Shown here: positions 8,835-39,350 of the stretch, one piece after another
Position numbering within the stretch: the first letter of the stretch is position 1
Layout: each line of letters starts with the position of its first letter
Assembly (NCBI GenBank): GCA_035630455.1
Contig: DASQKP010000031.1
Span: forward strand, 21,429 to 85,428
DNA from: Thermoleophilaceae bacterium
Lineage (GTDB): Bacteria; Actinomycetota; Thermoleophilia; Solirubrobacterales; Thermoleophilaceae
DNA length: 64,000 bases
Direction: 5' to 3'
The notes under the pieces: generated by a model
Seen by the model: the letters and a program-made list of their open reading frames with translations, nothing else
What the model was told of the DNA's origin: nothing
The model's database searches: none
Position numbers and translations under genes: made by a program

Positions 8835-10201
8835 CGGCGGGTTCCGATCTCGTGCGCGCCGCTGGCGAGACCGCTGCCCGGGCTGGGTCCGACGATCTCC
8901 AGCCGGGTTCCCCAGGGATCTTCGAAGTAAGCCGCCTGCCAGCCGTGGAGTGGGTGCTGCGGGTCCTCCACGTCGATCGGCTCGACGACGAACCGGACCC
9001 CCGCCGCCGCCAGCCGCTGGTGCACCTCGCGCACGTCGCGCACGCCGAACGAGACGTGGTCGAGGCCCGGGTCCACGATTGTCCGCCGGGTGGTGGCGTC
9101 GTCGTCGCCGCGCGGCTGATGAAGCCACAGCTCGATCCGGCTGCCGCCTGGGCAGAGCAGCTGCACGACCCCCCCGGTCGCGTCCTCCAGTCCGGTCACG
9201 GCTGTGAGGAAGCCACCTTCCAGGGCGTGGCGCCAATCCTCCTCGAGACCGAGGATGTCCCGGTAGAACCGCAGGCCGGCCTCAATGTCGGGCACCTCGA
9301 TCGCGATGTGCGACCCGATGCCCGAGACCCAGTCTCCGTCGAGGCCGGTGGCGAGCGGCCCGCCCGTGGCGGGTTTGCCCTCGACGCGCGCGAGGAACGG
9401 GCGCAGCCGCGCCACGCAGTCCCGCCAGTGCGACAGCACGACACCGTGGAAGGCGCCCGAGACGAACGCGAGCTCGCCCCGAGGAGCCGCCGCGGCGAGC
9501 GCCTCGGCGTTCGACGGATCGACGAACGGGCTGCGCTCCGGCGAGATCACCAGCAGCGGCGCCTGCAGCTTTCCGACCGCGTCGGAGAGGTCGACTCCCA
9601 TCAGGCAGATGGCGATCCCGGTGACCACGCGCGGGTCGATGTTCCGCTGGCGGGCGGCCAGCCACTCCGCGATCGCCGGATCGACGTCGGGCCCAAGGCG
9701 GCCACTGACGATCTCCTCGACCCAGGTCGTCATGCCCTCCTCGGTGGCAACGAGGTCAGGCCAGTGCGCGATGTTGGCGATCCGCGTCCCGTCGAACGCC
9801 GTCGAGCAGGTCGTGACCGACCGCACCCGCGCCGGGTTCGCCGCGGCGAAGGCGAGGCCGATAGTCCCGCCGAACGACTCGCCGACAAAGTGGAAGGCGT
9901 CGACGCCGGCGGCGTCGAGCACGCGCTCGAGATCGTCGACGAAGCGCTCGAACGGGTAGCCGTCGGCCGACCACGCGGCGGCCGACTCGCCGTGGCCGCG
10001 CAGGTCGATGGCGAGCACGGGCCGGTCGGCCGCGACGGCCGCGATCCAGGGGCGCCACACGTCGAGCGACAGCCCGAGGCCGTGCAGGAAGACGATCGGA
10101 GTCGCGTCCGGGGCCCACGGCGGGCGCAGGTCTACGGTCGCGAAGGCCAGCTCGTCGCCGTCGACGTCGATCGTCTGGCGATCCAGCGGTTGCGCCGTCA
10201 T
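8831..10201 (-). CDS. Fusion protein: N-terminal alpha/beta-hydrolase (enol-lactonase/MCP-hydrolase-like) plus C-terminal VOC (glyoxalase/extradiol dioxygenase-fold) domain
   Basis: ATG 10201 (ATGA overlap with the ATPase stop). The N-terminal half has IVFLHGLGLSLDVWRPW, LRGHGES and the nucleophile elbow GESFGG. The C-terminal ~150 aa has HIAIEVPDIEAGLRFYRDILGL, LDHVSFGV and YFEDPWGTRLEI, i.e. the paired beta-alpha-beta-beta-beta modules with His/His/Glu ligand positions. Confidence 0.8.
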   Translation of the reverse strand: MTAQPLDRQTIDVDGDELAFATVDLRPPWAPDATPIVFLHGLGLSLDVWRPWIAAVAADRPVLAIDLRGHGESAAAWSADGYPFERFVDDLERVLDAAGVDAFHFVGESFGGTIGLAFAAANPARVRSVTTCSTAFDGTRIANIAHWPDLVATEEGMTTWVEEIVSGRLGPDVDPAIAEWLAARQRNIDPRVVTGIAICLMGVDLSDAVGKLQAPLLVISPERSPFVDPSNAEALAAAAPRGELAFVSGAFHGVVLSHWRDCVARLRPFLARVEGKPATGGPLATGLDGDWVSGIGSHIAIEVPDIEAGLRFYRDILGLEEDWRHALEGGFLTAVTGLEDATGGVVQLLCPGGSRIELWLHQPRGDDDATTRRTIVDPGLDHVSFGVRDVREVHQRLAAAGVRFVVEPIDVEDPQHPLHGWQAAYFEDPWGTRLEIVGPSPGSGLASGAHEIGTRR

Positions 10202-11778
10202 GTCGCCTCGACCGGCAGTCGGTCGCCTCCGTGCCCGTAGCAAGCCGCCGAGATCGCGTGCTCATTCAGCTGACCGCCGGTCAGCTCGACGTGGAGGCCG
10301 CCCTCCCAGAGGACGAGGACGCGGCTCGCGACCTGAGCGAGCTCGTCGTGCTCGCTCGACACGATCAGGACCGCCATCGACTCCTCGGCGGCCGCCGCCA
10401 GCACCTTGTTGAAGATCTCGCGCCGGGCCTCGATATCGACGCCGTGCGCCGGCTCGTGGAGGATCAGCAGCTTGGGTCCGAGGCCCATCCACTTGCCGAG
10501 CAGGGCCTTCTGCTGGTTGCCGCCGCTGAGCTGGCCGAAGACGGCGTGCGGCGTACGCGGCTTGACGGCGTACCGCTCGGTCAGGTCGCGGACGTCGCGG
10601 ACCTGGCGGTCGCCGTCGAGCCAGCCGCGACGGAAGTAGTCGCCCAGCGTCGCGAGGGTGACGTTCTCCGTCACGGTCGCCTCGGCCACCGCCCCCTCGC
10701 CGATCCGCTGACCGGGAACCAGCGCCACGCCGGCGCGGATCGCGTCGCGCGGCCTGGCCTGTCCGAGCTCGGTCCCGTCGACCTCGATCGAGCCGCTCGC
10801 AGCCTTGGTCGCGCCGAAGAGCAGGCCGGGCAGCTCGTCCTGGCCCATCCCCAGCAGTCCCGTGACACCCACCACCTCGCCGGCGCGGACCTCGAACGAG
10901 AGGTCGCGCAGGATCGCGCCGTTCAAGCCGCGCACGCGCAGCACCTCGGCCGCGGCGCTGGCCTGCAGCCGCCCGCCGGACAGCTCCTCGACGTCGCGGC
11001 CGACGATCAGGCGGATCAGCTCGCGCTCGGTGAGGTCCGCGGTCGGCACCGTTCCGGCGCCGCGCCCGTCGCGCAGCACCGTGACCGCGTCGGTGACGGC
11101 GGTGATCTCGTCGAGCCGATGGCTGACGAACAGGACGGCGCTGCCGTCGCCGGCGACGCGCCGGACGGCGGTGAAGAGGCGCTCGACCTGGTCGTCGGGG
11201 AGCGCCGCGGTCGCCTCGTCGAGCACCAGCAGGCCGGCGCCGTGGGCGCCCTCGATCCCGTCGAGCGCGCGGGCGATGGCGAGGATCGCGCGCTCGCCGC
11301 CCGGCAGCGCGGCGACGGGCTGGTCGATGTCCAGATCGAGCTCGAAGCGCGCGAGCAGGCGGCGGGCGTCGGCGCGCGCCGCGCGCCAGCGCAGCCGCCG
11401 CAGCGGCGGCTCGGTCGCCCACTGGGCGATCCGCAGGTTGTCGACGATCGACAGCGTGTCGACGAGCGCGAGGTCCTGGTGGAGGATCGAGATTCCGAGC
11501 GCGGCCGGGCCACGCGGACCGAGCGGCAGCTCCACGTCCTCGCCCCGCACCGCGAGCCTGCCCCCCGGATCCGGCGCGTGGAAGCCGCCGAGGATCTTGA
11601 TGAACGTCGACTTGCCGCAGCCGTTCTGGCCGATCAGCCCGTGCACGGTGCCCGGGGCGATGTCGAGCGAGAAGTCGCTCAGCGCGGCTGTCGAGCCGAA
11701 CGTCTTGGAGATCCCCCTGACGGAGAGGATCGGCACGTCCGCGCCCGGCGCCGCGGCCGCCTGAGCCGGCGCCGTCAT
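10198..11778 (-). CDS. ABC transporter ATP-binding protein with two fused NBDs (CUT2/RbsA-type)
   Basis: ORF trimmed to ATG 11778 (ATGA overlap). Walker A GQNGCGKST, second-half signature LSGGNQQKALLGKW. 526 aa, consistent with tandem NBDs. Confidence 0.9.
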   Translation of the reverse strand: MTAPAQAAAAPGADVPILSVRGISKTFGSTAALSDFSLDIAPGTVHGLIGQNGCGKSTFIKILGGFHAPDPGGRLAVRGEDVELPLGPRGPAALGISILHQDLALVDTLSIVDNLRIAQWATEPPLRRLRWRAARADARRLLARFELDLDIDQPVAALPGGERAILAIARALDGIEGAHGAGLLVLDEATAALPDDQVERLFTAVRRVAGDGSAVLFVSHRLDEITAVTDAVTVLRDGRGAGTVPTADLTERELIRLIVGRDVEELSGGRLQASAAAEVLRVRGLNGAILRDLSFEVRAGEVVGVTGLLGMGQDELPGLLFGATKAASGSIEVDGTELGQARPRDAIRAGVALVPGQRIGEGAVAEATVTENVTLATLGDYFRRGWLDGDRQVRDVRDLTERYAVKPRTPHAVFGQLSGGNQQKALLGKWMGLGPKLLILHEPAHGVDIEARREIFNKVLAAAAEESMAVLIVSSEHDELAQVASRVLVLWEGGLHVELTGGQLNEHAISAACYGHGGDRLPVEAT

Positions 11779-19974: not shown

Positions 19975-20244
19975 TCAGGCGGCGGAACGGCGGGCGAAGC
20001 GCTCGCGACGCTTCGCGGCCTCCTCGTCGCGGTCCTTCGGCGGGGCGTTGCTCACCAGTCCGTCGAGCAGCGTCCGCGTGGCCGCGGTGACCTCCTCGAC
20101 CGCACGATCGAACGCCTCCTGATTGGCCTTCGACGGCTTGGTCGAGCCGCTGATCTTGCGGACGTACTGCAACGCCGCGTCGTGGACCTCGTCCTCGTTC
20201 GCGGGTGGCTCGAAGTTATGCAGGGTTCGGATGTTTCGGCACAT
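19975..20244 (-). CDS. DUF2277-family small protein
   Basis: ORF trimmed to ATG 20244. MCRNIRTLHNFEPPANEDEVHDAALQYVRKISGSTKPSKANQEAFDRAV matches my recollection of the conserved actinobacterial MCRNIRTLHNFEPPAT... family. Confidence 0.7.
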   Translation of the reverse strand: MCRNIRTLHNFEPPANEDEVHDAALQYVRKISGSTKPSKANQEAFDRAVEEVTAATRTLLDGLVSNAPPKDRDEEAAKRRERFARRSAA

Positions 20245-20281
20245 GTCACTGAGCGTAGTGGCAACGCCTATCTTGGAGGGG

Positions 20282-21757
20282 GTGCATGCACGCGCCAAAG
20301 TCAGCGCGTTCGCGATCACCGTCCTGACGGTGATGCTGATCGCCGCGACCCCCGCCTTTGGCGCCGCCGCCCATGACGGCTGGGGATTCGCGGTCGCCGA
20401 CGACGACTGGGAGTGGGACGACCCGGGCTATCTCCCGTCGCTGGAGGACGAGTTCGCCGCCCTCGGGCCGAAGGCCTTTCGCTTCCAGATGATCTGGAAC
20501 GCGGCCGACCTTCCATGGCACCTCGACCGAGCGCGGGGAATCATCGCTCGCGCCAGAGCCCAAGGCGTAGAGCAGATCGTCGTGACGTTCAAGCGGAGCG
20601 TGGGCTCCGATACCGACCCCGTCTACGGCGTCAAGCCCACCGCGGAGGGCTACACCGAGCACGTCAGCGAGGTCGTGCGCCTGCTCGCCGACGACGTCGA
20701 CGTCTGGGGACCCGCCAACGAGCCCAATCGCGGTGAGACGTGGCTGCCGGGGGTGTCGGGAGCGCAACTGCTGGCGGGGTACTACGCGGGTCTGGAGGAC
20801 GCGGTCGCCACCTGGGACCCGACGGCGGCGACCACCTCCCCCGACTTCGTCGACCGCGCCGACCTGGGGACGATCGCCAACTACGTCAACCCGTACGAGA
20901 ACGCCGGCGGCGGCTGGGGCGACCATGTCGCCATCCACCCGTACGCGGGGGCGTACAACGAGACCACCAGCACGACGCTCGACATCATCGGCCTAGCGCC
21001 ACCGGGAGCGAGCGTCTGGGTCACCGAGGTCGGCGCCTTCGGCAGGAGCCAGCGCGGAATCGAGGCCTCCGAGACGTCCCAGAACGACACGGTCTGGTGG
21101 CTCGCGACGATCCTGGCGGAGCTGCCCCAAGTCGAGCGGATCCACTACTACCACATGCGCGGAAACCCCCAAGCCGCTTGGGATACCGGCCTGCTGAACG
21201 TCGACCGCGGCAAGCGAATCGCCTGGCACACCTGGTGCGCCATGGCCCACGGCGACCTGGAGCACGCCGCCTGCCAACCGGTGACACGGCGGTCGGTCGT
21301 GCCGTCGCCGCTCGATCCGTCACTGCCCGACCCCCCTCTCGCCGGGCCGGCCAGCGCGACCGCGGGCCCACCCCAGCCCGACTGCCCGTACGCGCTCACC
21401 TGCGCTGCCCCGCCACCCGACCGCACGCCTCCCACGCTGACCATCGACCGTCGCAACAGGCTCGGCTACGACGACTTCATGAACGGCTTCGCCTTCCGCG
21501 TGCGGCCAAGCGAGCGCAGCGCTCTGAAGATCGAGGTCCTCGTCCGCCTACGCCGCGCGGGCGATAGCCCTCGCCGTTACGTGACCGTGGCGAAGAAGAG
21601 CCTTGCGGCAGCCGACGGCTCGCACGTCGTCCGGCTCAAACCGCGACACCGGGCGCTCAGCGGACGACACCGATTCCTCGCCCGCCTGCGGGTGCACGCC
21701 ACCGATCTCGAGGGCAACCGCGGGACAGCGACCAAGCTGCTCCGCGTCAGTCGATAG
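20282..21757 (+). CDS. Secreted clan GH-A (TIM-barrel) glycoside hydrolase-like protein with a basic C-terminal module
   Basis: GTG 20282 follows GGAGGG. Signal peptide ...IAATPAFGAAAHD. Acid/base-type motif WGPANEPN and nucleophile-type motif VWVTEVGAF. Pro-rich linker, then an Arg-rich C-terminal module. ATG 20243 is an alternative start. Confidence 0.7.
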   Translation: MHARAKVSAFAITVLTVMLIAATPAFGAAAHDGWGFAVADDDWEWDDPGYLPSLEDEFAALGPKAFRFQMIWNAADLPWHLDRARGIIARARAQGVEQIVVTFKRSVGSDTDPVYGVKPTAEGYTEHVSEVVRLLADDVDVWGPANEPNRGETWLPGVSGAQLLAGYYAGLEDAVATWDPTAATTSPDFVDRADLGTIANYVNPYENAGGGWGDHVAIHPYAGAYNETTSTTLDIIGLAPPGASVWVTEVGAFGRSQRGIEASETSQNDTVWWLATILAELPQVERIHYYHMRGNPQAAWDTGLLNVDRGKRIAWHTWCAMAHGDLEHAACQPVTRRSVVPSPLDPSLPDPPLAGPASATAGPPQPDCPYALTCAAPPPDRTPPTLTIDRRNRLGYDDFMNGFAFRVRPSERSALKIEVLVRLRRAGDSPRRYVTVAKKSLAAADGSHVVRLKPRHRALSGRHRFLARLRVHATDLEGNRGTATKLLRVSR

Positions 21758-23074
21758 TCACTCCACCAGCCGCACCTCGAAGGCGGCGCTGGTGAGGTCG
21801 CCGGCGCCGTCGAGGAGGCCGAGTATCTTGGCGACGTAGGCCTGGGTCTCGGGGTAGTCGGGAATGCAGCCGCAGGCGGCGACGGGCGCCGGGCCGGCGT
21901 TGTAGGCGGCGAGGGCGAGCGGGACGGAGGCGAACTGGCGCAGCAGGTCGTGCATCAGGTGGGCCTGGGCATCGATCGCGGCCTTGGGATCGAAGGGGTT
22001 GGAGAGGCCGTAGCTGGCCGCCGTCCCCGGCATGAACTGGGCGATTCCCTGGGCGCCCGCCGGTGAGCTCGCGAAAGGGTTGAAGTTGGACTCTGCGTAG
22101 AGCTGGGCCGAGAGAACGGCGGCACCGACGTTCCAGCGCTGGGAGGCCCGCGAGATGGCGTCGGCGAACTGGGGCGGGACGAACGACGGGATCGCGGAGC
22201 GGCCGTCGCGGATCTTGGCGCCGTAGCCGACCGAGGCGGAGCCGGCCGCGCGAACGTAGCCGTAGTGCCAGGGCTCCCAGCTGTACCTCTGCACGAACCC
22301 GAAGCGCTGGGCGTTCGCCGCGAGCCATCCGTAGGCGGCATTCGGCCCCAGGTCCAGCTCGGTTCCGAGGCGGTGAAGACTCTTGCCGGGTGGGGCAACC
22401 CAGCGGGGATCTGGGTTCGCGGCGAACAGGGCCGCTTGCTCGGCGTCGGAACGGAAGCCGCTGACCACGATCAGAGAGAGGCCGTCAGAGAGCGCGGCCG
22501 CCGCCATGCGGTCGAAGGCCATCGCCACATCGGGCCTCATCGGCTTCCCACCTCGGTAGGCCAGCGGACCCGAGTAGCCGCCACCGCTCGCCATCGTCGG
22601 CATCGCGGCTCCGCCACCTAGTGGCGCCAGCTCGGCGGTGGCGCTCGCCTCGACCGCGACGCGCCGTTTGCGCGCCCCATCCTTGACCCGGACGTCGACC
22701 GTCCCGCGTGTCCGCACCCGGACCCGTGTCGGCGCGAAGCCTCCGCCCGGAAACGTGACGTCGGTCAGTCCGAGCCGGACGCCGTTGCGCTCGCCGGCGC
22801 GGACCGCCGCCGAGCGGGCGCGAGCGAGGTACTCGAGCGTCGACAGGTGGTGCGGATTCGGCAGGCCGTTCGGGAGCGTGACCGGCTCGAACAGCCGGAA
22901 GTAATCGTCGCTCATGCGGTGCGCGGCCGAGACGGCCGCCAGGTCGGCGGCGCGCTGGTGGCGGGACTTGCCGCCGAGCGCCTGACCGAAGGCGACGAGG
23001 ACGAGCGTCCCGACGAGCGCCGCCGCGACGACGCCGAGCATCAGCAACAGCGCCTGGCCGCGCTCGCTCCTCAC
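21758..23074 (-). CDS. Three-part fusion: TadG-like N-terminal anchor, VanY/M15 D-Ala-D-Ala carboxypeptidase domain, and SLT lytic transglycosylase domain
   Basis: The N-terminus MRSERGQALLLMLGVVAAALVG...RHQRAADLAAVSAAHRM resembles the TadE/G-like Flp-pilus assembly N-terminus. M15 zinc motifs SLHRLGTELD and EPWHYGY. SLT motifs YAESNF, GIAQFMPGTA and AYNAGP. Confidence 0.8.
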   Translation of the reverse strand: MRSERGQALLLMLGVVAAALVGTLVLVAFGQALGGKSRHQRAADLAAVSAAHRMSDDYFRLFEPVTLPNGLPNPHHLSTLEYLARARSAAVRAGERNGVRLGLTDVTFPGGGFAPTRVRVRTRGTVDVRVKDGARKRRVAVEASATAELAPLGGGAAMPTMASGGGYSGPLAYRGGKPMRPDVAMAFDRMAAAALSDGLSLIVVSGFRSDAEQAALFAANPDPRWVAPPGKSLHRLGTELDLGPNAAYGWLAANAQRFGFVQRYSWEPWHYGYVRAAGSASVGYGAKIRDGRSAIPSFVPPQFADAISRASQRWNVGAAVLSAQLYAESNFNPFASSPAGAQGIAQFMPGTAASYGLSNPFDPKAAIDAQAHLMHDLLRQFASVPLALAAYNAGPAPVAACGCIPDYPETQAYVAKILGLLDGAGDLTSAAFEVRLVE

Positions 23075-23772
23075 GGCGCGACCGCCACGAGGTCGGCGAG
23101 CTGGGCGACGCGGCGGCCCAGCTCACCGCGGGCCTCACGACCGGCGAGCGCGAGCTGCGCGCCCATCCGGGCGTCGGGCAGGCGCAGGGCGCAGCGGGCG
23201 TCCCAGCGCTCGTCGGCGTCGCGGTCGCGATTCAGGACGACGACCGGCTCGGGACCGACGCGGCACAGGGACTCTGCGAGAACGGAGGCGAGCGCCGGCT
23301 CCGTCCCGGGACCCGCGACGAGGACCACGGCGTCGACGAGCGACGCGGCGACCGACGTCCCCGCCGCGTCGGCCACATCGAGAACCAGCGGGGCGAGATC
23401 GCGGGCGGCATCGACGAACGCCGCGTGGTCGGGACCGGCGACCGTCAGGCAGATCCGCCCGACCGCGCGCGTCTGCGACGGCAGCGAACGCTGGACCGCC
23501 CGGCCAAGGCGCCCGGCCGCTGGCGTCCCCAGCGGGATCCCACCGCCGGCAACGGTCTCGGTGCTGACGATCGCCGCTCCGCCGTCGTCGCGCAGCGCCA
23601 GCTCGGCCGCCAGCGCCCGCGCCACGGTCGTGGTCCCGCAGCGCGGCGCCAGTCCCGCCACGGCGACCACGGGTCGCGCCATCCGTTTCCAGGCCCGGTC
23701 GGCCTCGGCGCTCGCCGGCTCCAGCGGCTCGACGAGGAAATCGGCGACCGTCGACAGCAGTCCGCCCCTCAT
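23071..23772 (-). CDS. Hypothetical protein with a degenerate MinD/ParA/CpaE(TadZ)-like P-loop
   Basis: VVAVAGLAPRCGTTTVARALAAELA aligns to the deviant Walker A (xKGGxGKTT) but lacks both lysines. Walker B-like LVLDVAD. 4-nt overlaps on both sides. Confidence 0.5.
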   Translation of the reverse strand: MRGGLLSTVADFLVEPLEPASAEADRAWKRMARPVVAVAGLAPRCGTTTVARALAAELALRDDGGAAIVSTETVAGGGIPLGTPAAGRLGRAVQRSLPSQTRAVGRICLTVAGPDHAAFVDAARDLAPLVLDVADAAGTSVAASLVDAVVLVAGPGTEPALASVLAESLCRVGPEPVVVLNRDRDADERWDARCALRLPDARMGAQLALAGREARGELGRRVAQLADLVAVAP

Positions 23773-24110
23773 GGCAGCTCCACCGCCGCCTCGGCGCGGA
23801 CCTCGAGCTTGCGCGCGACGAGCTTCAGCGGCGACGGCGGGCGCAGCCGCACGCCCACCGTCCCGCCGCTCACTTCAACCCGAGCCTGTGCTTGCGACCA
23901 GCCCGGCAGCGCGTGCTTCACGGCCGCCCGCGCGTCTCCCCCACCCGCCAGCGCGAGCGCGCCTGCCTCGGCGGCGGTGCCCGCCAGCACGGCCGAGTAG
24001 CCGACGGCCAGCAACTGCATCAAGACCAGCCCGACCACCAGCAGCACCGGCAGCGCCGCCACCACCTCGACCAGAGCCTGCCCGCGCTCAGAGCCCAGAT
24101 CGCCGTTCAC
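23769..24110 (-). CDS. TadE-like (Flp pilus minor pseudopilin-like) protein
   Basis: 113 aa. N-terminus SERGQALVEVVAALPVLLVVGLVLMQ is the TadE-like motif (ERGQA.VE...LP.LL). Confidence 0.75.
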   Translation of the reverse strand: MNGDLGSERGQALVEVVAALPVLLVVGLVLMQLLAVGYSAVLAGTAAEAGALALAGGGDARAAVKHALPGWSQAQARVEVSGGTVGVRLRPPSPLKLVARKLEVRAEAAVELP

Positions 24111-24460
24111 GACCCGTCCCCGAGCGACGCCGTCGCCCCGACCGCCACCGGCAGCCGCCAGCGGTGCAGCAGCAGCGGCAGCTCCACGCTGACCGCCACC
24201 CGCCCGTCGCGACGCTCGACCTCGAGACCGGGCTCCAGCCCCGCCGGCAGCACGGAGCGGACGGCCGCCTTCACGTCACCGTCGACCACCTCCGCCCGTG
24301 CCCCGGCGCGCGCGGCATGGGCCGCGAGCCACGCCGTATGACCGGCGAGCGCGCACTGCCAGACGAGCGCGCCCACCAGCAAGACGAACGGCAACGCGGC
24401 CACCAGCTCGACGCTCGACTGCCCCTGTTCGGACCGCCCGAGGCGGCGTAGAAAGCTCAT
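24107..24460 (-). CDS. TadE-like (Flp pilus minor pseudopilin-like) protein
   Basis: 117 aa. N-terminus SEQGQSSVELVAALPFVLLVGALVWQ is the TadE-like motif. Confidence 0.75.
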   Translation of the reverse strand: MSFLRRLGRSEQGQSSVELVAALPFVLLVGALVWQCALAGHTAWLAAHAARAGARAEVVDGDVKAAVRSVLPAGLEPGLEVERRDGRVAVSVELPLLLHRWRLPVAVGATASLGDGS

Positions 24461-24517
24461 GCCACCGACCGTCTCAGCGGCCGTGAGACGGGAAAACCCC
24501 GCTCTGTTACAGCACTG

Positions 24518-25693: not shown

Positions 25694-26050
25694 TCAGTCG
25701 TACGCGCGGTACTGAGTCCAGACCCAGTAGACCCCATACGAGCAGGCGCCGAGCAGCGCGAGCCAGACCACGACACCGGCGCCGCCGACGTCGAACAGCC
25801 TGTTGGTCGCGCAGAAGGTCAGGAACGCCAGCCCGATCGAGCCGTAGAGCACCGCCCGATTGGCGTCCGGCAGCCCCTCCAGATCCATCCGGAACTGACG
25901 GAACAGGCGGTAGCCAAGCATCGCGATCGCCGTGAAGAAGGCGATCGAGAGGGCGGTGAGCAGCAGGTTGAGCGCGTTGTCGCCGCCTGGCAGCCCGGTC
26001 AGCAGCAGCGCCACCAGCGCGATCAGGCCGAACTTCCAGAACAGGCTCAC
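25694..26050 (-). CDS. Small integral membrane protein, unknown function
   Basis: 118 aa with four hydrophobic segments. Abuts the nhaA start with no gap. GTG start. Confidence 0.6.
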   Translation of the reverse strand: MSLFWKFGLIALVALLLTGLPGGDNALNLLLTALSIAFFTAIAMLGYRLFRQFRMDLEGLPDANRAVLYGSIGLAFLTFCATNRLFDVGGAGVVVWLALLGACSYGVYWVWTQYRAYD

Positions 26051-26060
26051 GGCCCCGATC

Positions 26061-26894
26061 CTAGCCCGGCGACTGGATCGCGCCGGTGGCCGTCAGCGCC
26101 AGCACCAGGACGCCGAGCACCACCCGGTAGCCGACGAACAGCCGCACCGAGTGGGTCGTCAGGTAGCGCAGCAGCCAGGCGATCGCCGCGTAGCCGACGA
26201 AGAACGCGATCACAGTCGCCAGCAGGATGTAGCCGAGCGGCTCGCCGTTGCCCTCCTCGCCCGACAGGACGCTCGCGAGCTGGAACAGGCCGCTCAGCAC
26301 GACCGCCGGGATCGCCAGCAGGAACGAGAAGCGCGCCGCGGCCGTGCGGTCGAGGCCCAGCAGCAGGCCCGCGCTCATCGTCGCGCCCGAGCGCGACACG
26401 CCGGGGATCAGCGCCAGCGACTGCGCCAGGCCGATCAGGATGCCGTCGCGCGTCGAGATCTGGCCCAGCTCGCGCTCGTGGGTGCCGACTCGATCGGCGT
26501 AGCCGAGCACCAGGCCGAAGACGATCAGCACCGTCCCGACCAAATACAGGTCGCGCGCGCCGTTCTCGATCTGGGTCTCGAACGTCAGGCCGAGCAGGCC
26601 GATCGGGATCGTCGCGACGATCAGATACCAGCCCATCCGCGCGTGCACGGTCGAGCGCAGCACCGGCCGGTAGAGCGAGCGCAGCCACACCGTCGCGATC
26701 GACCAGATGTCGTTGCGGAAGTAGATGAGCACCGCCGCCTCGGTGCCCAGCTGCGTCACGGCGGTGAACGCCGCCCCCGGGTCCTCCCAGCCGAGCATCG
26801 CCGGGACGATCAGCTGGTGGGCGCTGGAGGAGATCGGCAGGAACTCGGTGAGCCCCTGCAGGATGCCCAGCACTATGGCCTCGATCAGCGACAC
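26061..26894 (-). CDS. uppP: Undecaprenyl-diphosphate phosphatase
   Basis: MSLIEAIVLGILQGLTEFLPISSSAH and PGVSRSGATM are the BacA/UppP signature motifs. Confidence 0.92.
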   Translation of the reverse strand: MSLIEAIVLGILQGLTEFLPISSSAHQLIVPAMLGWEDPGAAFTAVTQLGTEAAVLIYFRNDIWSIATVWLRSLYRPVLRSTVHARMGWYLIVATIPIGLLGLTFETQIENGARDLYLVGTVLIVFGLVLGYADRVGTHERELGQISTRDGILIGLAQSLALIPGVSRSGATMSAGLLLGLDRTAAARFSFLLAIPAVVLSGLFQLASVLSGEEGNGEPLGYILLATVIAFFVGYAAIAWLLRYLTTHSVRLFVGYRVVLGVLVLALTATGAIQSPG

Positions 26895-36708: not shown

Positions 36709-37218
36709 GTGCCCAAGGACACCGGCTTCCCCCAGACCGACGCGCAGTTCGACTTTTCCCGCGCGCGGCGGCGCCGCGGACTGGCGCGGCTCGCCAACCG
36801 ACTAAAGGGCCGGCCCGGCTCAAAGGTGGCGATCCTCCCGTTCGAGGAGGTCGTCGAGGCACTCGGCCGCGTCGGCGAGCGCCGCCTCGGCCTGAAGTCG
36901 ATCCCGCTCGACTCAATCGTCGGAACCGTCGACCGCGGTCGCGAGTTCGACCGCGGCTTCCGCCCCACGTCCGGTCGCCCCCGCGGCCGCTTCGAGCGGA
37001 TCGCCACCGCCAAGCGCCGCGGCGAGTCGATGCCCCCGATCCGCGTCTACCGGATCGCCAACGCCCACTTCGTCGAGGACGGCCACCACCGCGTCTCCGT
37101 CGCCCGCGCCCAATCCCAACCCGACATCGACGCCTACGTCACCGAGGTCGTCCCCGAGATCGGCCACGACCTCGACCTCCGTAAAGCCACCCCCGCCGAG
37201 CTACGGGCCCTGCGTTAG
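36709..37218 (+). CDS. ParB/sulfiredoxin-like domain protein (stand-alone, DGHHR motif)
   Basis: C-terminal half MPPIRVYRIANAHFVEDGHHRVSVARA carries the ParB N-terminal-domain/Srx-type DGHHR motif. The start is uncertain: GTG 36709 chosen, and the ORF extends up to 36613. Confidence 0.55.
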   Translation: MPKDTGFPQTDAQFDFSRARRRRGLARLANRLKGRPGSKVAILPFEEVVEALGRVGERRLGLKSIPLDSIVGTVDRGREFDRGFRPTSGRPRGRFERIATAKRRGESMPPIRVYRIANAHFVEDGHHRVSVARAQSQPDIDAYVTEVVPEIGHDLDLRKATPAELRALR

Positions 37219-39350
37219 CGCTTCGGCGCGCGAACTACGATTTCCGACGTCTGCCGGAAGATGAGCCGAGTCCCGAACGGCCGGAAGGTGACGACTGCCT
37301 TCACCCGCACGGGTCTTGAGCCACGGAGCAGCTTGCGCTTGCGGGGCGCGAGCCGGAAGCCCAGTCTGCGCGGCACGCCACCCTTGACGCGGGCCCGAGC
37401 GTCCACGAGCGCTACGCGCTTGCCCTTACGCAACAAGTGCGCACGCACGCGCAGCGTGCCCGGCCTACGGGTCTCGAACCGTGGAAGTCGGAGGAGTCCC
37501 GCGGGGCCTCCGCGCAGGAGCTTGGGGAAGGCGCTCGTCAGCCGCGCGAGATCGCGATCAACTGGCCCATAGTCGACCGGTGGTGGTGTCTTGGCGGGGC
37601 GAAGCGGACGCGTGGGGGGTGTACGCGTCCCGCGGAGCGCTATCGAAGCAGGCGCGGGGCCGCCACCCGCATAGGTGACCGTCAGGGTTCCCGCAAGGGG
37701 ACTCGATGCCGTCGGCCTGAAGTCGACCGAGACGACGCAATCGTCCTCGGGCAGCAGCAGCTCATCCGAGCACGTGTCGACTCCTACTCCAAAGCCAGCA
37801 CTCGCGAACACCTCCGCGACCTCGGCAGGCTCGTCGCCGGCGTTGACGATTCTCACCTCGCGTGGAGCGCTCCTGCGCCCCGCACCGACGTACCCGAAGT
37901 CGATCGCGCTGGGACTCGGCGACAGGAACGCGCTGAGAAATGAGGCCGCTTCCACGAACACGTACCGCGGTCCGGAGGCTGAACTGCCCTGGATCTCCAC
38001 CAGGTCGAACAGTTCCTCCGTAGCCCCCGGAGCATCGAAGCGAACGTCAACCTCGCATGTCGCCCGTCGAGGGAGCGTCCCGGCGCAGCCATTGCCGACG
38101 ATCGAGAACGCTCCCGGTGACAGGCCCATGACCTCGATGGCGCCCGGGGCGACTGGCGCCGACCCGGTGTTGTGAACCGTGAACGACTGCGTCGCCGAAC
38201 CGAACGCGCTCAGCCAGCCGAAATCGATCAAGTCCGTGCTGACGTGAAGCGCGTCGCCGAACGCAATGCCGACGCCGGACCCCGAGACCTCCAGGGCCAG
38301 ATCGTCCTCACCGTCCTCATCGAAGTCGGCCATCTCCGTCCCGCTGTGAGAGCCGTTGGCATAAAGCTGGCCGCCATCGAGGCGCTCAAAGCTGCCGTCG
38401 TCGCCTTGGAGAAGTACCTGGACTTTGCCGGTGTTACCAGGCGTCGTCACCAAGTCCATGTCAGCGTCGCCGTCCAGATCACCAGCCTCGACGTCCGCAG
38501 GAAAATCCTCAACAGAGTACGACTCTCGCGTCCCGAATTGACCTGGTCCCGTGCCGGGAAGGACAGACACGGCCTGCCCGGTGAAGTCTGCCGAGACCAC
38601 GTCGAGCAATCCATCCCCATCGACGTCAACAATCTCTGCGCCCGTGGGATGACCGCCCACGTCATGACGGACCGCCGATGCGAACACGCCGCCGGCCCCC
38701 TGCCGGAAGACGAGCACCTCACCGTTGGAGGGATCGACCCCGACAATGTCATCGTCGCCGTCCGAATCCAGATCAGCAACGGCCAATACGGGCGGCAACG
38801 AGACAGCGAGAGAGACCTCATGTATGAAGCTGCCGTCCGGCTGTTGGATCAAGAGGGCGACATGTCGCGACGGTAAGTCGCGTGGCACCGCAACGTCAAG
38901 TCTGTCGTCGCCACCGAAGTCCCCCAGAACCGCATTGTCAGAACCGAACGGTACGGCCATCGTCCCGGCTCCCAGTCCACCGGCCCCGTCTCCACGAAAC
39001 AGCCTGCCGGCCGCGAGAACGTCCAGCACACCATCGCCGTCGAGATCACCCGTATTGATCGTTCCTGGAAACAAGGAATCACCTAGCGGATACGTCTCTA
39101 TGTCGAAGCCGCCCTCCCCATCGCCAAGCCCTACGGCAATCCCCCCGTTTACCCCAGTCAGCACGTCCTGGTGCCCGTCCTCGTCGAAGTCGACGATGTC
39201 CATGCCGCGGGTCATCCCCTGCTCATAGGTCTCCGGCTCGAAGAATGTGATGGCGGCGGTGGCTCCGCCCGGCAGCACGAGACAGACCGCCACCCCAGCG
39301 ATAGCCGCGATCCATAGTGGCTGCCGCAGCACCCGACCGAACCCTGACAA
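37215..39350 (-). CDS. Secreted FG-GAP/VCBS-repeat protein with two choice-of-anchor-D-like beta domains and a basic C-terminal module
   Basis: TTG 39350 is preceded by GGGAGGG, followed by a signal peptide. Repeated D.D.DG..D[VIL] FG-GAP motifs (DFDEDGHQDV, DLDGDGVLDV, DLDSDGDDDI, DVDGDGLLDV, DLDGDADMDL, DFDEDGEDDL). Two segments of the type F.V.N.G..P......G....F......C...L.....C.V.V.F.P. Confidence 0.8.
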   Translation of the reverse strand: MSGFGRVLRQPLWIAAIAGVAVCLVLPGGATAAITFFEPETYEQGMTRGMDIVDFDEDGHQDVLTGVNGGIAVGLGDGEGGFDIETYPLGDSLFPGTINTGDLDGDGVLDVLAAGRLFRGDGAGGLGAGTMAVPFGSDNAVLGDFGGDDRLDVAVPRDLPSRHVALLIQQPDGSFIHEVSLAVSLPPVLAVADLDSDGDDDIVGVDPSNGEVLVFRQGAGGVFASAVRHDVGGHPTGAEIVDVDGDGLLDVVSADFTGQAVSVLPGTGPGQFGTRESYSVEDFPADVEAGDLDGDADMDLVTTPGNTGKVQVLLQGDDGSFERLDGGQLYANGSHSGTEMADFDEDGEDDLALEVSGSGVGIAFGDALHVSTDLIDFGWLSAFGSATQSFTVHNTGSAPVAPGAIEVMGLSPGAFSIVGNGCAGTLPRRATCEVDVRFDAPGATEELFDLVEIQGSSASGPRYVFVEAASFLSAFLSPSPSAIDFGYVGAGRRSAPREVRIVNAGDEPAEVAEVFASAGFGVGVDTCSDELLLPEDDCVVSVDFRPTASSPLAGTLTVTYAGGGPAPASIALRGTRTPPTRPLRPAKTPPPVDYGPVDRDLARLTSAFPKLLRGGPAGLLRLPRFETRRPGTLRVRAHLLRKGKRVALVDARARVKGGVPRRLGFRLAPRKRKLLRGSRPVRVKAVVTFRPFGTRLIFRQTSEIVVRAPKR

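Follow-up and report, generated by a model that had tools for sequence, protein, structure and literature searches.

We describe a cassette of four minus-strand genes, tadE1, tadE2, p233 and p438, found in a stretch of DNA from a Thermoleophilaceae bacterium (contig DASQKP010000031.1 of assembly GCA_035630455.1; the whole stretch of 64,000 nucleotides (nt) is called the window, and all coordinates of open reading frames (ORFs) refer to positions in it). The predicted products of the cassette are two minor pilins together with one TadZ-like and one TadG-like protein, and it contains nothing more. We give about an even chance to its being a remote minor-pilin "tip" or priming cluster of a Tad-type (type IVc) system, in which the TadG-like subunit carries a wall-opening module and the motor is encoded elsewhere. 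The component families, and detached clusters of the TadEFG type, are already known. What is new, as far as the literature shows, is the fusion of a TadG-type N-terminus to a VanY-type peptidase and an SLT domain, the invariable pairing of this fusion with two TadE paralogues and an unannotated family of ParA-fold pseudo-ATPases, and the conservation of the cassette throughout the order, with no pilus motor close by. By which means type IV and Tad filaments get through the thick peptidoglycan of single-membrane bacteria is listed among the open questions (PMC6916266). The cassette is a concrete candidate for such wall crossing by a Tad system, as its TadG-like minor pilin would itself be peptidase and lytic transglycosylase.

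A sequence-only reading of this DNA had described four minus-strand genes that each overlap the next by 4 nt, and the junctions indeed read GTGA, ATGA and GTGA in gene order. Overlaps of the GTGA/ATGA type are the usual mark of translational coupling, and to judge from them tadE1-tadE2-p233-p438 are translationally coupled. All four ORFs have a third-position G+C of 0.88-0.91, a strong coding-type composition, in a window with a G+C of about 70%. The closest database relatives of the window are metagenome-assembled genomes labelled Thermoleophilaceae or Solirubrobacterales.

The two small proteins, which had been proposed to be TadE-like, are so by different routes. TadE1 is a member of Pfam TadE (PF07811), with 25.1 bits at a gathering cut-off of 22.9. 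TadE2 scores 11.2 bits, below that cut-off, and only 6 of 32 TadE2 orthologues reach Pfam TadE at E <= 0.01. When the orthologue families of TadE1 and TadE2 are aligned with each other as profiles (hhalign), they match end to end over 111 columns with a probability of 99.9% (E 7e-36), and because the alignment runs end to end TadE2 is, on this evidence, a diverged full-length paralogue of TadE1, comparable to the TadE/TadF pair. The NCBIfam model TadE_Rv3655c (NF041390) matches both proteins over their full length, with 19.2 bits for TadE1 and 22.6 bits for TadE2; the cut-off is 40, so that the two are related to this subfamily by their sequences and are not members of it by the curated threshold.

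Both proteins have the make-up of class III prepilins, that is, a short charged leader ending in Gly, a Glu at +5 and a hydrophobic alpha-1N helix some 20 residues long. TadE1 starts with MSFLRRLGRSEQG/QSSVE (the slash marks the predicted cleavage site) and has a single N-terminal hydrophobic segment at amino acids (aa) 14-41; TadE2 starts with MNGDLGSERG/QALVE, again followed by a single N-terminal hydrophobic segment. In 50 orthologues of TadE1, positions G13, Q14, V17 and E18 show a conservation of 95% or more. In about 50 orthologues of TadE2, Q11, E15 and P21 never vary, G10 reaches a conservation of at least 90% and V14 is also among the best-kept positions. The best-conserved positions of the two families are thus those of the class III (prepilin) signal peptide: Gly -1, Gln +1 and Glu +5. 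Since the remainder of TadE2 averages only 31% column identity, its leader seems to be under specific constraint, and the conservation of G/Q..VE points to selection for prepilin-type processing and assembly. A tblastn search of plasmids with TadE1 gave zero matches.

The 438-aa protein had been taken for a peptidoglycan enzyme with a TadG-like N-terminus, which Pfam matches to Tad, VanY and SLT bear out. Its N-terminus scores 23.4 bits with Pfam Tad (PF13400, TadE/G-like), above the cut-off of 22.3 by a small margin. TIGR03816, the model of the TadE-like Rv3654c family, matches aa 4-56 with 24.4 bits, which is below its cut-off of 50.95. The leader reads MRSERG/QALLL, with G6, Q7 and A8 nearly invariant; it shares the motif E-R-G-Q with the TadE proteins and has Leu instead of Glu at +5. 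Tip-located minor pseudopilins, GspK for example, typically lack Glu at +5. After the helix comes a TadG signature of the type A-A-D-x-A-A-L-A-A, here Q-R-A-A-D-L-A-A-V-S-A-A, in which Q40, R41, D44, L45, A47 and A50 are invariant, and because this TadG-type motif is invariant the N-terminus of p438 is probably more than a generic membrane anchor. Leader and transmembrane segment are all that this domain shares with TadE1 and TadE2. An AlphaFold model of p438 has an overall predicted local distance difference test score (pLDDT) of 60.6 and is reasonable at aa 1-150, where block pLDDT is mostly 66-94. There it consists of a helix of 58 residues (5-62), a second helix (79-96) and two strands (117-129 and 136-151) that make up a beta-hairpin, which suggests a pilin-like "lollipop". 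A fold search with this model of low overall confidence returned matches for the enzyme domains only and none for the N-terminal domain.

The rest of p438 belongs to two enzyme families. The first domain is a LAS metallopeptidase by its Pfam VanY match (PF02557, E 6.4e-18), its motifs for zinc and catalysis, of the family patterns SxHxxGxAxD and ExxH, are invariant in 43 sequences as S232-x-H234...D241 and E267-x-x-H270, and Foldseek places it with VanYB and LdcB at 30-34% identity (E ~6e-5). The second is a lytic transglycosylase by its Pfam SLT match (PF01464, E 4.2e-19), and here E328-S329, G343-I344-A-Q-F and A-Y391-N392-A-G394 are invariant in the same number of sequences. Its Foldseek match is the catalytic domain of the lytic transglycosylase MltF, and among the NCBIfam models it comes closest to the flagellar-assembly lytic transglycosylase BB0259 (E 7e-14) and to MltF (E 2.5e-10), both below the cut-offs. 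Judged by these motifs, both enzyme domains are catalytically intact. A look-up of the exact p438 sequence of the window found no record.

The best NCBIfam relatives of TadE1, TadE2 and the p438 N-terminus, all below cut-off, are TadE_Rv3655c and Rv3654c, the distal genes of actinobacterial tad loci. In Mycobacterium tuberculosis the genes Rv3655c/Rv3654c follow ssd-tadA-tadB-tadC-flp. The cassette resembles this pair in its leader, of the type ERG followed by Q or A at the cleavage site. Unlike Rv3655c/Rv3654c, the cassette genes have no such genes beside them, and about 290 residues of enzyme are joined to the Rv3654c-like segment.

The third gene product, p233, is harder to place. Neither p233 nor 45 relatives match a Pfam or NCBIfam family, including ParA, MinD and CbiA, and a profile search of the PDB sequences gave a best E of 0.2. 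A word-indexed search found 704 clusters of this family, none with a Pfam domain and all named "hypothetical protein" apart from one "uncharacterized metal-binding protein". The family is narrow, with 290 representatives among 1.84 billion proteins in a full profile search. An AlphaFold model built from 46 sequences (pLDDT 84.7, predicted template modelling (TM) score 0.81) has as its top Foldseek match in the PDB the ParA-family ATPase 3ea0 (E 2.5e-6, TM 0.57), followed by BcsQ (6yb5), MinD (1hyq), Soj (2bek), FlhG (4rz2), FleN and HypB; the Foldseek probability is 1.0 for 3ea0, 1hyq, 2bek, 4rz2 and 6yb5, with TM 0.46-0.57. The model thus indicates a ParA/MinD (SIMIBI) fold, and the family would be an unannotated and very divergent branch of it, whichever reading of the cassette is true.

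What sets p233 apart is its P-loop position, which reads V-A-V-A-G-L-A-P-R-C-G-T-T-T and is conserved across the family. Compared by eye with G-K-G-G-V-G-K-T-T of MinD, GLAPRCGTTT lacks the signature and the catalytic lysine and has its glycine-rich loop replaced, so that the deviant Walker A motif KGGxGK[ST] of ParA/MinD is absent; the whole of p233 contains one lysine. A Walker-B-like hhhhD (P-L-V-L-D132) is invariant. Before the P-loop strand stand only about 33 residues, poorly modelled. p233 resembles TadZ, CpaE and Ssd in its fold class, in an atypical Walker A without the catalytic lysine and in being encoded among Tad pilin genes. It differs from them in matching no sequence model and in lacking the signature lysine, the glycine-rich loop, the N-terminal receiver-like domain and an adjoining TadA gene. 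TadZ and CpaE, by definition, combine a receiver-like N-terminal domain with an atypical ATPase domain next to tadA, and p233 falls outside that definition. The sequence-only reading had called p233 a dead P-loop protein. The MinD/CpaE-like fold and the lysine-less Walker A stand, both in the predicted structure; a loss of nucleotide binding may be supposed from the predicted fold together with the absent lysines. In the TadZ of Eubacterium rectale an absent P-loop lysine is reported to be offset by a lysine from a neighbouring helix (PMC10482377).

We scanned one genome per species for relatives of p438 and compared 82 related loci of up to 21 kb (numbered with an L, as in L001). Relatives of p438 turned up at no fewer than 555 genome loci, of which the best 80, one contig apart, are labelled Thermoleophilaceae, Solirubrobacterales, Solirubrobacteraceae or unclassified Actinomycetota; Paraconexibacter sp. 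AEG42_29 (DSM 112329) is among them with its complete genome. Chromosomes with the cassette include the complete OY970240.1, OY970162.1, OY970298.1 and NZ_CP114014.1, and the cassette is also on ERZ25039504 contig_33259. A neighbourhood survey of the fusion and the cassette, as the sequence-only reading had proposed, thus finds an order-wide block and no oddity of the window: in Solirubrobacterales the cassette is conserved on the chromosome of no fewer than 555 genomes. The exceptional contig (L045) is 2 kb long, encodes a p438 homologue at 68% identity and is filed under a Longimicrobium sp. (Gemmatimonadota) metagenome-assembled genome; this label is most likely a binning error and not an occurrence outside Actinomycetota.

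The gene order around p438 is kept as well, with interruptions at one place. Homologues of tadE, p233 or mp118, a gene for a small membrane protein, lie upstream of p438 on the same strand in 54 of the 71 loci with enough upstream sequence, 43 of them directly adjacent to p438 and 11 with an insertion of 1.2-9 kb before it. p438 is alone within 10 kb in the other 17. These solitary genes might have been a separate paralogue, or have come from genomes that lack TadE, an idea we rejected as they are interspersed with the cassette-linked loci in identity clustering. In one genome of this kind, a comparison of L082 with L061 finds the block uppP-mp118-tadE-tadE-p233 15 kb upstream of p438, on the same strand of the same contig. 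On account of this interspersion and of the block 15 kb away, we regard the p233-p438 junction as an insertion hot spot and not as the sign of a different system. Inserts of unrelated DNA of 1.2-15 kb occupy the junction in L027, L035, L046, L050, L052, L058, L066, L069, L075, L078, L080 and L061/L082, and uppP-mp118-tadE-tadE-p233 stays contiguous where it is interrupted. The insert of L082 includes genes for a PAP2 phosphatase, a methyltransferase and an FHA protein. In Paraconexibacter (L080) the gene order is the same, the p233 counterpart is much more diverged, and a small minus-strand ORF (9133-9534) is inserted before p438; this ORF may encode a toxin of the PIN/VapC type.

Upstream of the cassette, uppP, a membrane protein and nhaA had been reported. 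All three are present, and only the first two are conserved partners. In 48 related loci mp118 is kept as the gene immediately upstream of tadE1, and uppP precedes mp118 in about 25 loci and also in the Pfam-annotated L001 and L082. mp118 is retained beside tadE1 even where uppP is undetected. It carries a nearly invariant L-P-G-G motif after its first helix, matches no Pfam family and might belong to the cassette as its fifth component. We also considered whether mp118 might be a minimal GxGD prepilin peptidase and rejected this: the window has LPGGD where the consensus is LPGGG, a second conserved Asp is absent and Peptidase_A24 is unmatched. Only the window and the three loci closest to it (L002-L004) have nhaA between mp118 and tadE1, and in all other loci mp118 is directly followed by tadE1. 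In the window nhaA abuts the mp118 stop (0 nt) and leaves 57 nt to the start of tadE1, and it looks like a recent, lineage-specific insertion of a single gene into an operon-like block, outside the cassette.

How might these parts work together? We propose that the motor half of the system, namely the Flp pilin, the TadA ATPase, the TadB/C platform and the TadV peptidase, is encoded elsewhere in the genome, and that a TadV-type peptidase would cleave the leaders of TadE1, TadE2 and p438 after Gly. All three start with a short charged leader E-[RQ]-G, then Q and a hydrophobic helix. Their N-terminal helices would bundle into a heterotrimeric tip complex with p438 as the backbone, and p233 would be a TadZ-like scaffold that works without nucleotide and puts this complex in place or nucleates it. 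Once the tip is pushed out, the enzyme module of p438 would trim stem peptides and cut glycan strands locally, and this cutting would open the thick, Gram-positive-type wall for the filament. The cell-wall context fits: Conexibacter woesei, a cultivated relative, is Gram-positive. In its content the cassette most likely corresponds to what a minimal monoderm Tad machine has besides its core. Monoderm Tad machines have TadZ or TadG as an extra component (PMC6916266).

The closest parallel comes from Myxococcus xanthus, which has four TadE/F/G-like kilLMN "Tip" clusters, one inside kil-gene cluster II, with three separate from it, and all four serve a single Kil Tad pilus (PMC12075869). The TadG-like subunit is predicted there to be the backbone of a heterotrimer, with an N-terminal helix bundle and an exposed, modular C-terminal domain (PMC12075869). 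The cassette is likewise a cluster of TadE-, TadF- and TadG-like genes, as with the three of four KilLMN clusters that lie away from the core cluster, and it likewise has a large TadG-like subunit beyond the size of a simple pilin, with a modular C-terminal domain and a proposed helix-bundle tip. Unlike in KilLMN, the modular domain is recognisable, as a VanY-type peptidase plus an SLT lytic transglycosylase. The cassette further differs in that its host is a monoderm actinobacterium, in that it occurs as one conserved copy within a housekeeping setting and in that the cognate Tad machine is only assumed. The sequence-only reading had offered the choice between an accessory cassette and a self-standing hydrolase system; the former now has a precedent in these Tip clusters (PMC12075869), and we hold it to be somewhat the likelier of the two.

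Other systems show what is common and what is peculiar here. FlgJ is the flagellar rod cap, in which a structural N-terminal domain is fused to a muramidase that opens the wall for the rod. VirB1, TraG of pIP501 and PrgK are the wall-opening enzymes of type IV secretion, and BfpH and the PilT of R64 are encoded in type IVb pilus operons. As in all of these, a peptidoglycan hydrolase is tied physically or genetically to what would be a wall-crossing structure. Unlike FlgJ and the VirB1-type enzymes, p438 joins a LAS peptidase and an SLT domain to a TadG-type N-terminus. To our knowledge, no enzyme fused to a TadG-type, pilin-like N-terminus has been described, and we know of no dedicated wall-opening hydrolase for any Tad system. 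A literature search on pilin-hydrolase fusions, and on Tad systems or pili in Thermoleophilia, Solirubrobacterales or Conexibacter, found nothing relevant. Modular type IV pilins are known from Streptococcus sanguinis, where PilB has a vWA module and PilC a lectin module, and hundreds of architectures are said to exist (PMC6916266, PMC12075869). p438 shares with PilB and PilC a pilin-type N-terminus onto which a functional module is grafted. These are type IVa pilins with adhesion modules, whereas p438 is Tad-type and TadG-like, with wall-degrading enzymes.

Several observations weigh against a remote tip cluster. First of all, the presence of a Tad core (TadA, TadB/C, Flp and TadV) in genomes with the cassette is an assumption, made because Tad loci are generally prevalent in Actinobacteria and because the prepilin motif is conserved. 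The sequence-only reading had found no tad core gene within 20 kb on either side, and this extends to the whole window: a Pfam scan that took in essentially every sizeable ORF detected no T2SSE, T2SSF, Peptidase_A24 or Flp, and the other genes encode metabolic enzymes, ABC, MFS and sugar transporters, a two-component system, cytochrome bd and similar. A scan of the window for Flp-like class III signal peptides returned TadE1, TadE2 and false positives within long unrelated ORFs. Among the 82 related loci, none has an ORF with a Walker A of the secretion-ATPase (TadA/T2SSE) type or an Flp-like ORF, and none has a TadA-type gene within 10 kb of the cassette. T2SSE, T2SSF and Peptidase_A24 are also absent from the fully Pfam-annotated loci L001 and L082; neither these two nor the window hold a Tad (type IVc pilus) locus.

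The setting and the conservation of the genes weigh on the same side. The context is a conserved housekeeping one: the window and about 25 loci have uppP upstream, the window and many other loci have MaoC downstream, and L001 carries uvrC, rapZ and gap-pgk-tpi at a greater distance on the downstream side. Insertions of more than 10 kb part p438 from the TadE genes in about a quarter of the genomes. Across the best 80 of the at least 555 loci p438 is 59-92% identical, more conserved than expected for a pilus tip protein, and its enzyme domains have low confidence in the AlphaFold model. The cassette also places the gene of a ParA/MinD-like pseudo-ATPase between its TadE and TadG-like genes, and the M. 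xanthus Tip clusters have no such gene. Taken together, the fixed location by uppP, the high conservation of p438 and its tolerated separation from its partners fit a housekeeping wall enzyme better than a tip. Because the core is assumed, and because several features suit such an enzyme better, our confidence in the remote-tip reading stops at roughly one half.

A pilus-independent wall-remodelling complex is the most serious alternative, and we regard it as possible, if the less probable of the two. In such a complex p438 would be a housekeeping, membrane-anchored bifunctional hydrolase, the TadE-like proteins would be its small bitopic partners or regulators with a retained anchor of the pilin type, and p233 would position it, for example at the septum or the poles, with no Tad motor at all. 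This would suit the position in the core chromosome, which is conserved in at least 555 Solirubrobacterales genomes, as well as the very high conservation of p438, its tolerance of up to 15 kb between it and the other three genes and the absence of a Tad core gene near the block in each of the 82 loci. It would also suit the neighbours, as uppP recycles the lipid carrier of the wall and adjoins the block, in L082 together with a PAP2 phosphatase. Furthermore, ParA/MinD-like proteins position many envelope machines, and BcsQ, FlhG and MinD are among the fold matches of p233. What such a complex hardly explains is that Gly -1, Gln +1 and Glu +5 are the best-kept positions in fast-evolving TadE paralogues, unless there is prepilin-type processing and helix-helix assembly. 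A cytoplasmic ParA-like protein, moreover, cannot reach extracytoplasmic hydrolase domains without a membrane-spanning machine, and all three exported proteins belong to families that are defined by Tad loci. If true, it would be a more novel outcome than a remote tip. That Solirubrobacterales have no Tad motor of any kind, and that (mp118)-tadE1-tadE2-p233-p438 is a self-standing envelope system, in which prepilin-like helices and a pseudo-ATPase of the ParA fold assemble and position a bifunctional peptidase and lytic transglycosylase in the wall, seems to us unlikely; peptidoglycan remodelling would then be organised in a manner not described before, with parts that stem from pili.

A filament end could also be turned outwards, so that the Tad tip attacks the walls of neighbours or aids the uptake of DNA or nutrients instead of opening the cell's own wall. 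Interchangeable Tad tips do mediate contact-dependent killing of prey in M. xanthus (PMC12075869), DNA is taken up via Tad pili in Micrococcus luteus (PMC6916266), and a peptidase with a lytic transglycosylase would be a plausible payload for breaching a wall. We nevertheless hold this to be improbable: each locus has a single copy of the genes, the housekeeping context is fixed and the sequences have hardly diversified, the opposite of effector and tip families, no conserved candidate immunity gene lies beside p438, where the downstream neighbours vary, and two genome papers on Solirubrobacterales do not mention a predatory lifestyle. A functionless, decaying remnant of a former tad locus, to which the degenerate P-loop of p233 and the absence of core genes from the neighbourhood might point, is effectively ruled out by conservation, as all four ORFs are intact, coupled and of coding-type composition, their order and motifs are kept across hundreds of species and the catalytic residues of both p438 enzymes are invariant.

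The outcome is of interest either way. If a Tad core is present, the concept of an adaptable Tad tip would extend from predatory proteobacteria to monoderms and gain an enzymatic payload. If the core is absent, pilus parts would have been recruited into a wall-remodelling machine. The carrier order, Solirubrobacterales, comprises abundant and poorly studied soil actinobacteria, of which at least Paraconexibacter sp. AEG42_29, with its complete genome, is in culture.

Table 1. Positions in the window of the cassette genes, the domains of p438 and the adjoining features
Feature	Position	Strand	Description
tadE1	24107-24460	-	117 aa, TadE-family minor (pseudo)pilin
tadE2	23769-24110	-	113 aa, TadE/TadF-like paralogue of tadE1
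p233	23071-23772	-	233 aa, cytoplasmic, predicted ParA/MinD-like (SIMIBI) fold, degenerate P-loop
p438	21758-23074	-	438 aa, modular TadG-like protein
p438, N-terminal pilin-like domain	22625-23074	-	aa 1-150; PF13400 match at aa 6-51 and AlphaFold2 model
p438, VanY/LdcB-like LAS metallopeptidase domain (MEROPS M15B)	22253-22540	-	aa 179-274
p438, SLT domain (family 1 lytic transglycosylase)	21881-22159	-	aa 306-398
nhaA	24518-25693	-	Pfam Na_H_antiport_1, E 3.8e-136
mp118	25694-26050	-	118-aa polytopic membrane protein, family-less
uppP/bacA (undecaprenyl-pyrophosphate phosphatase)	26061-26894	-	Pfam BacA, E 5.8e-82; 10 nt from mp118
Spacer upstream of tadE1	24461-24517	-	57 nt, with a 7-bp inverted repeat
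544-aa ORF	20123-21757	+	Weak Glyco_hydro_cc match, E 0.004

The spacer in front of tadE1 (Table 1) holds a perfect inverted repeat, CGTCTCA-N7-TGAGACG (24470-24490), that lies 10 nt before the tadE1 ATG. Having no T-run, it does not qualify as a classical terminator, and it might be a hairpin with a regulatory role or a scar that the nhaA insertion left. A promoter and terminator scan around the operon found neither a sigma-70-type promoter nor a credible terminator in the spacer, and an Rfam scan of the whole window gave zero family matches.

In L082 the gene of a PAP2-family phosphatase (10865-11521 of that locus) follows directly after p233, and uppP stands before the block; the cassette there would be flanked by two different families of possible undecaprenyl-pyrophosphate phosphatase. 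On its other side, p438 of the window converges with the 544-aa ORF, whose stop codon directly abuts that of p438 (TAG/TCA). This ORF is kept downstream of p438 in the closer relatives L001-L006 and L008 and not beyond. Elsewhere in the window, a minus-strand gene at 37215-39350 encodes a protein of 711 aa with FG-GAP repeats and Ig-like domains of the HYDIN/ASH type; its local G+C is about 65%, compared with about 70% for the window, and it may be an acquired surface protein.

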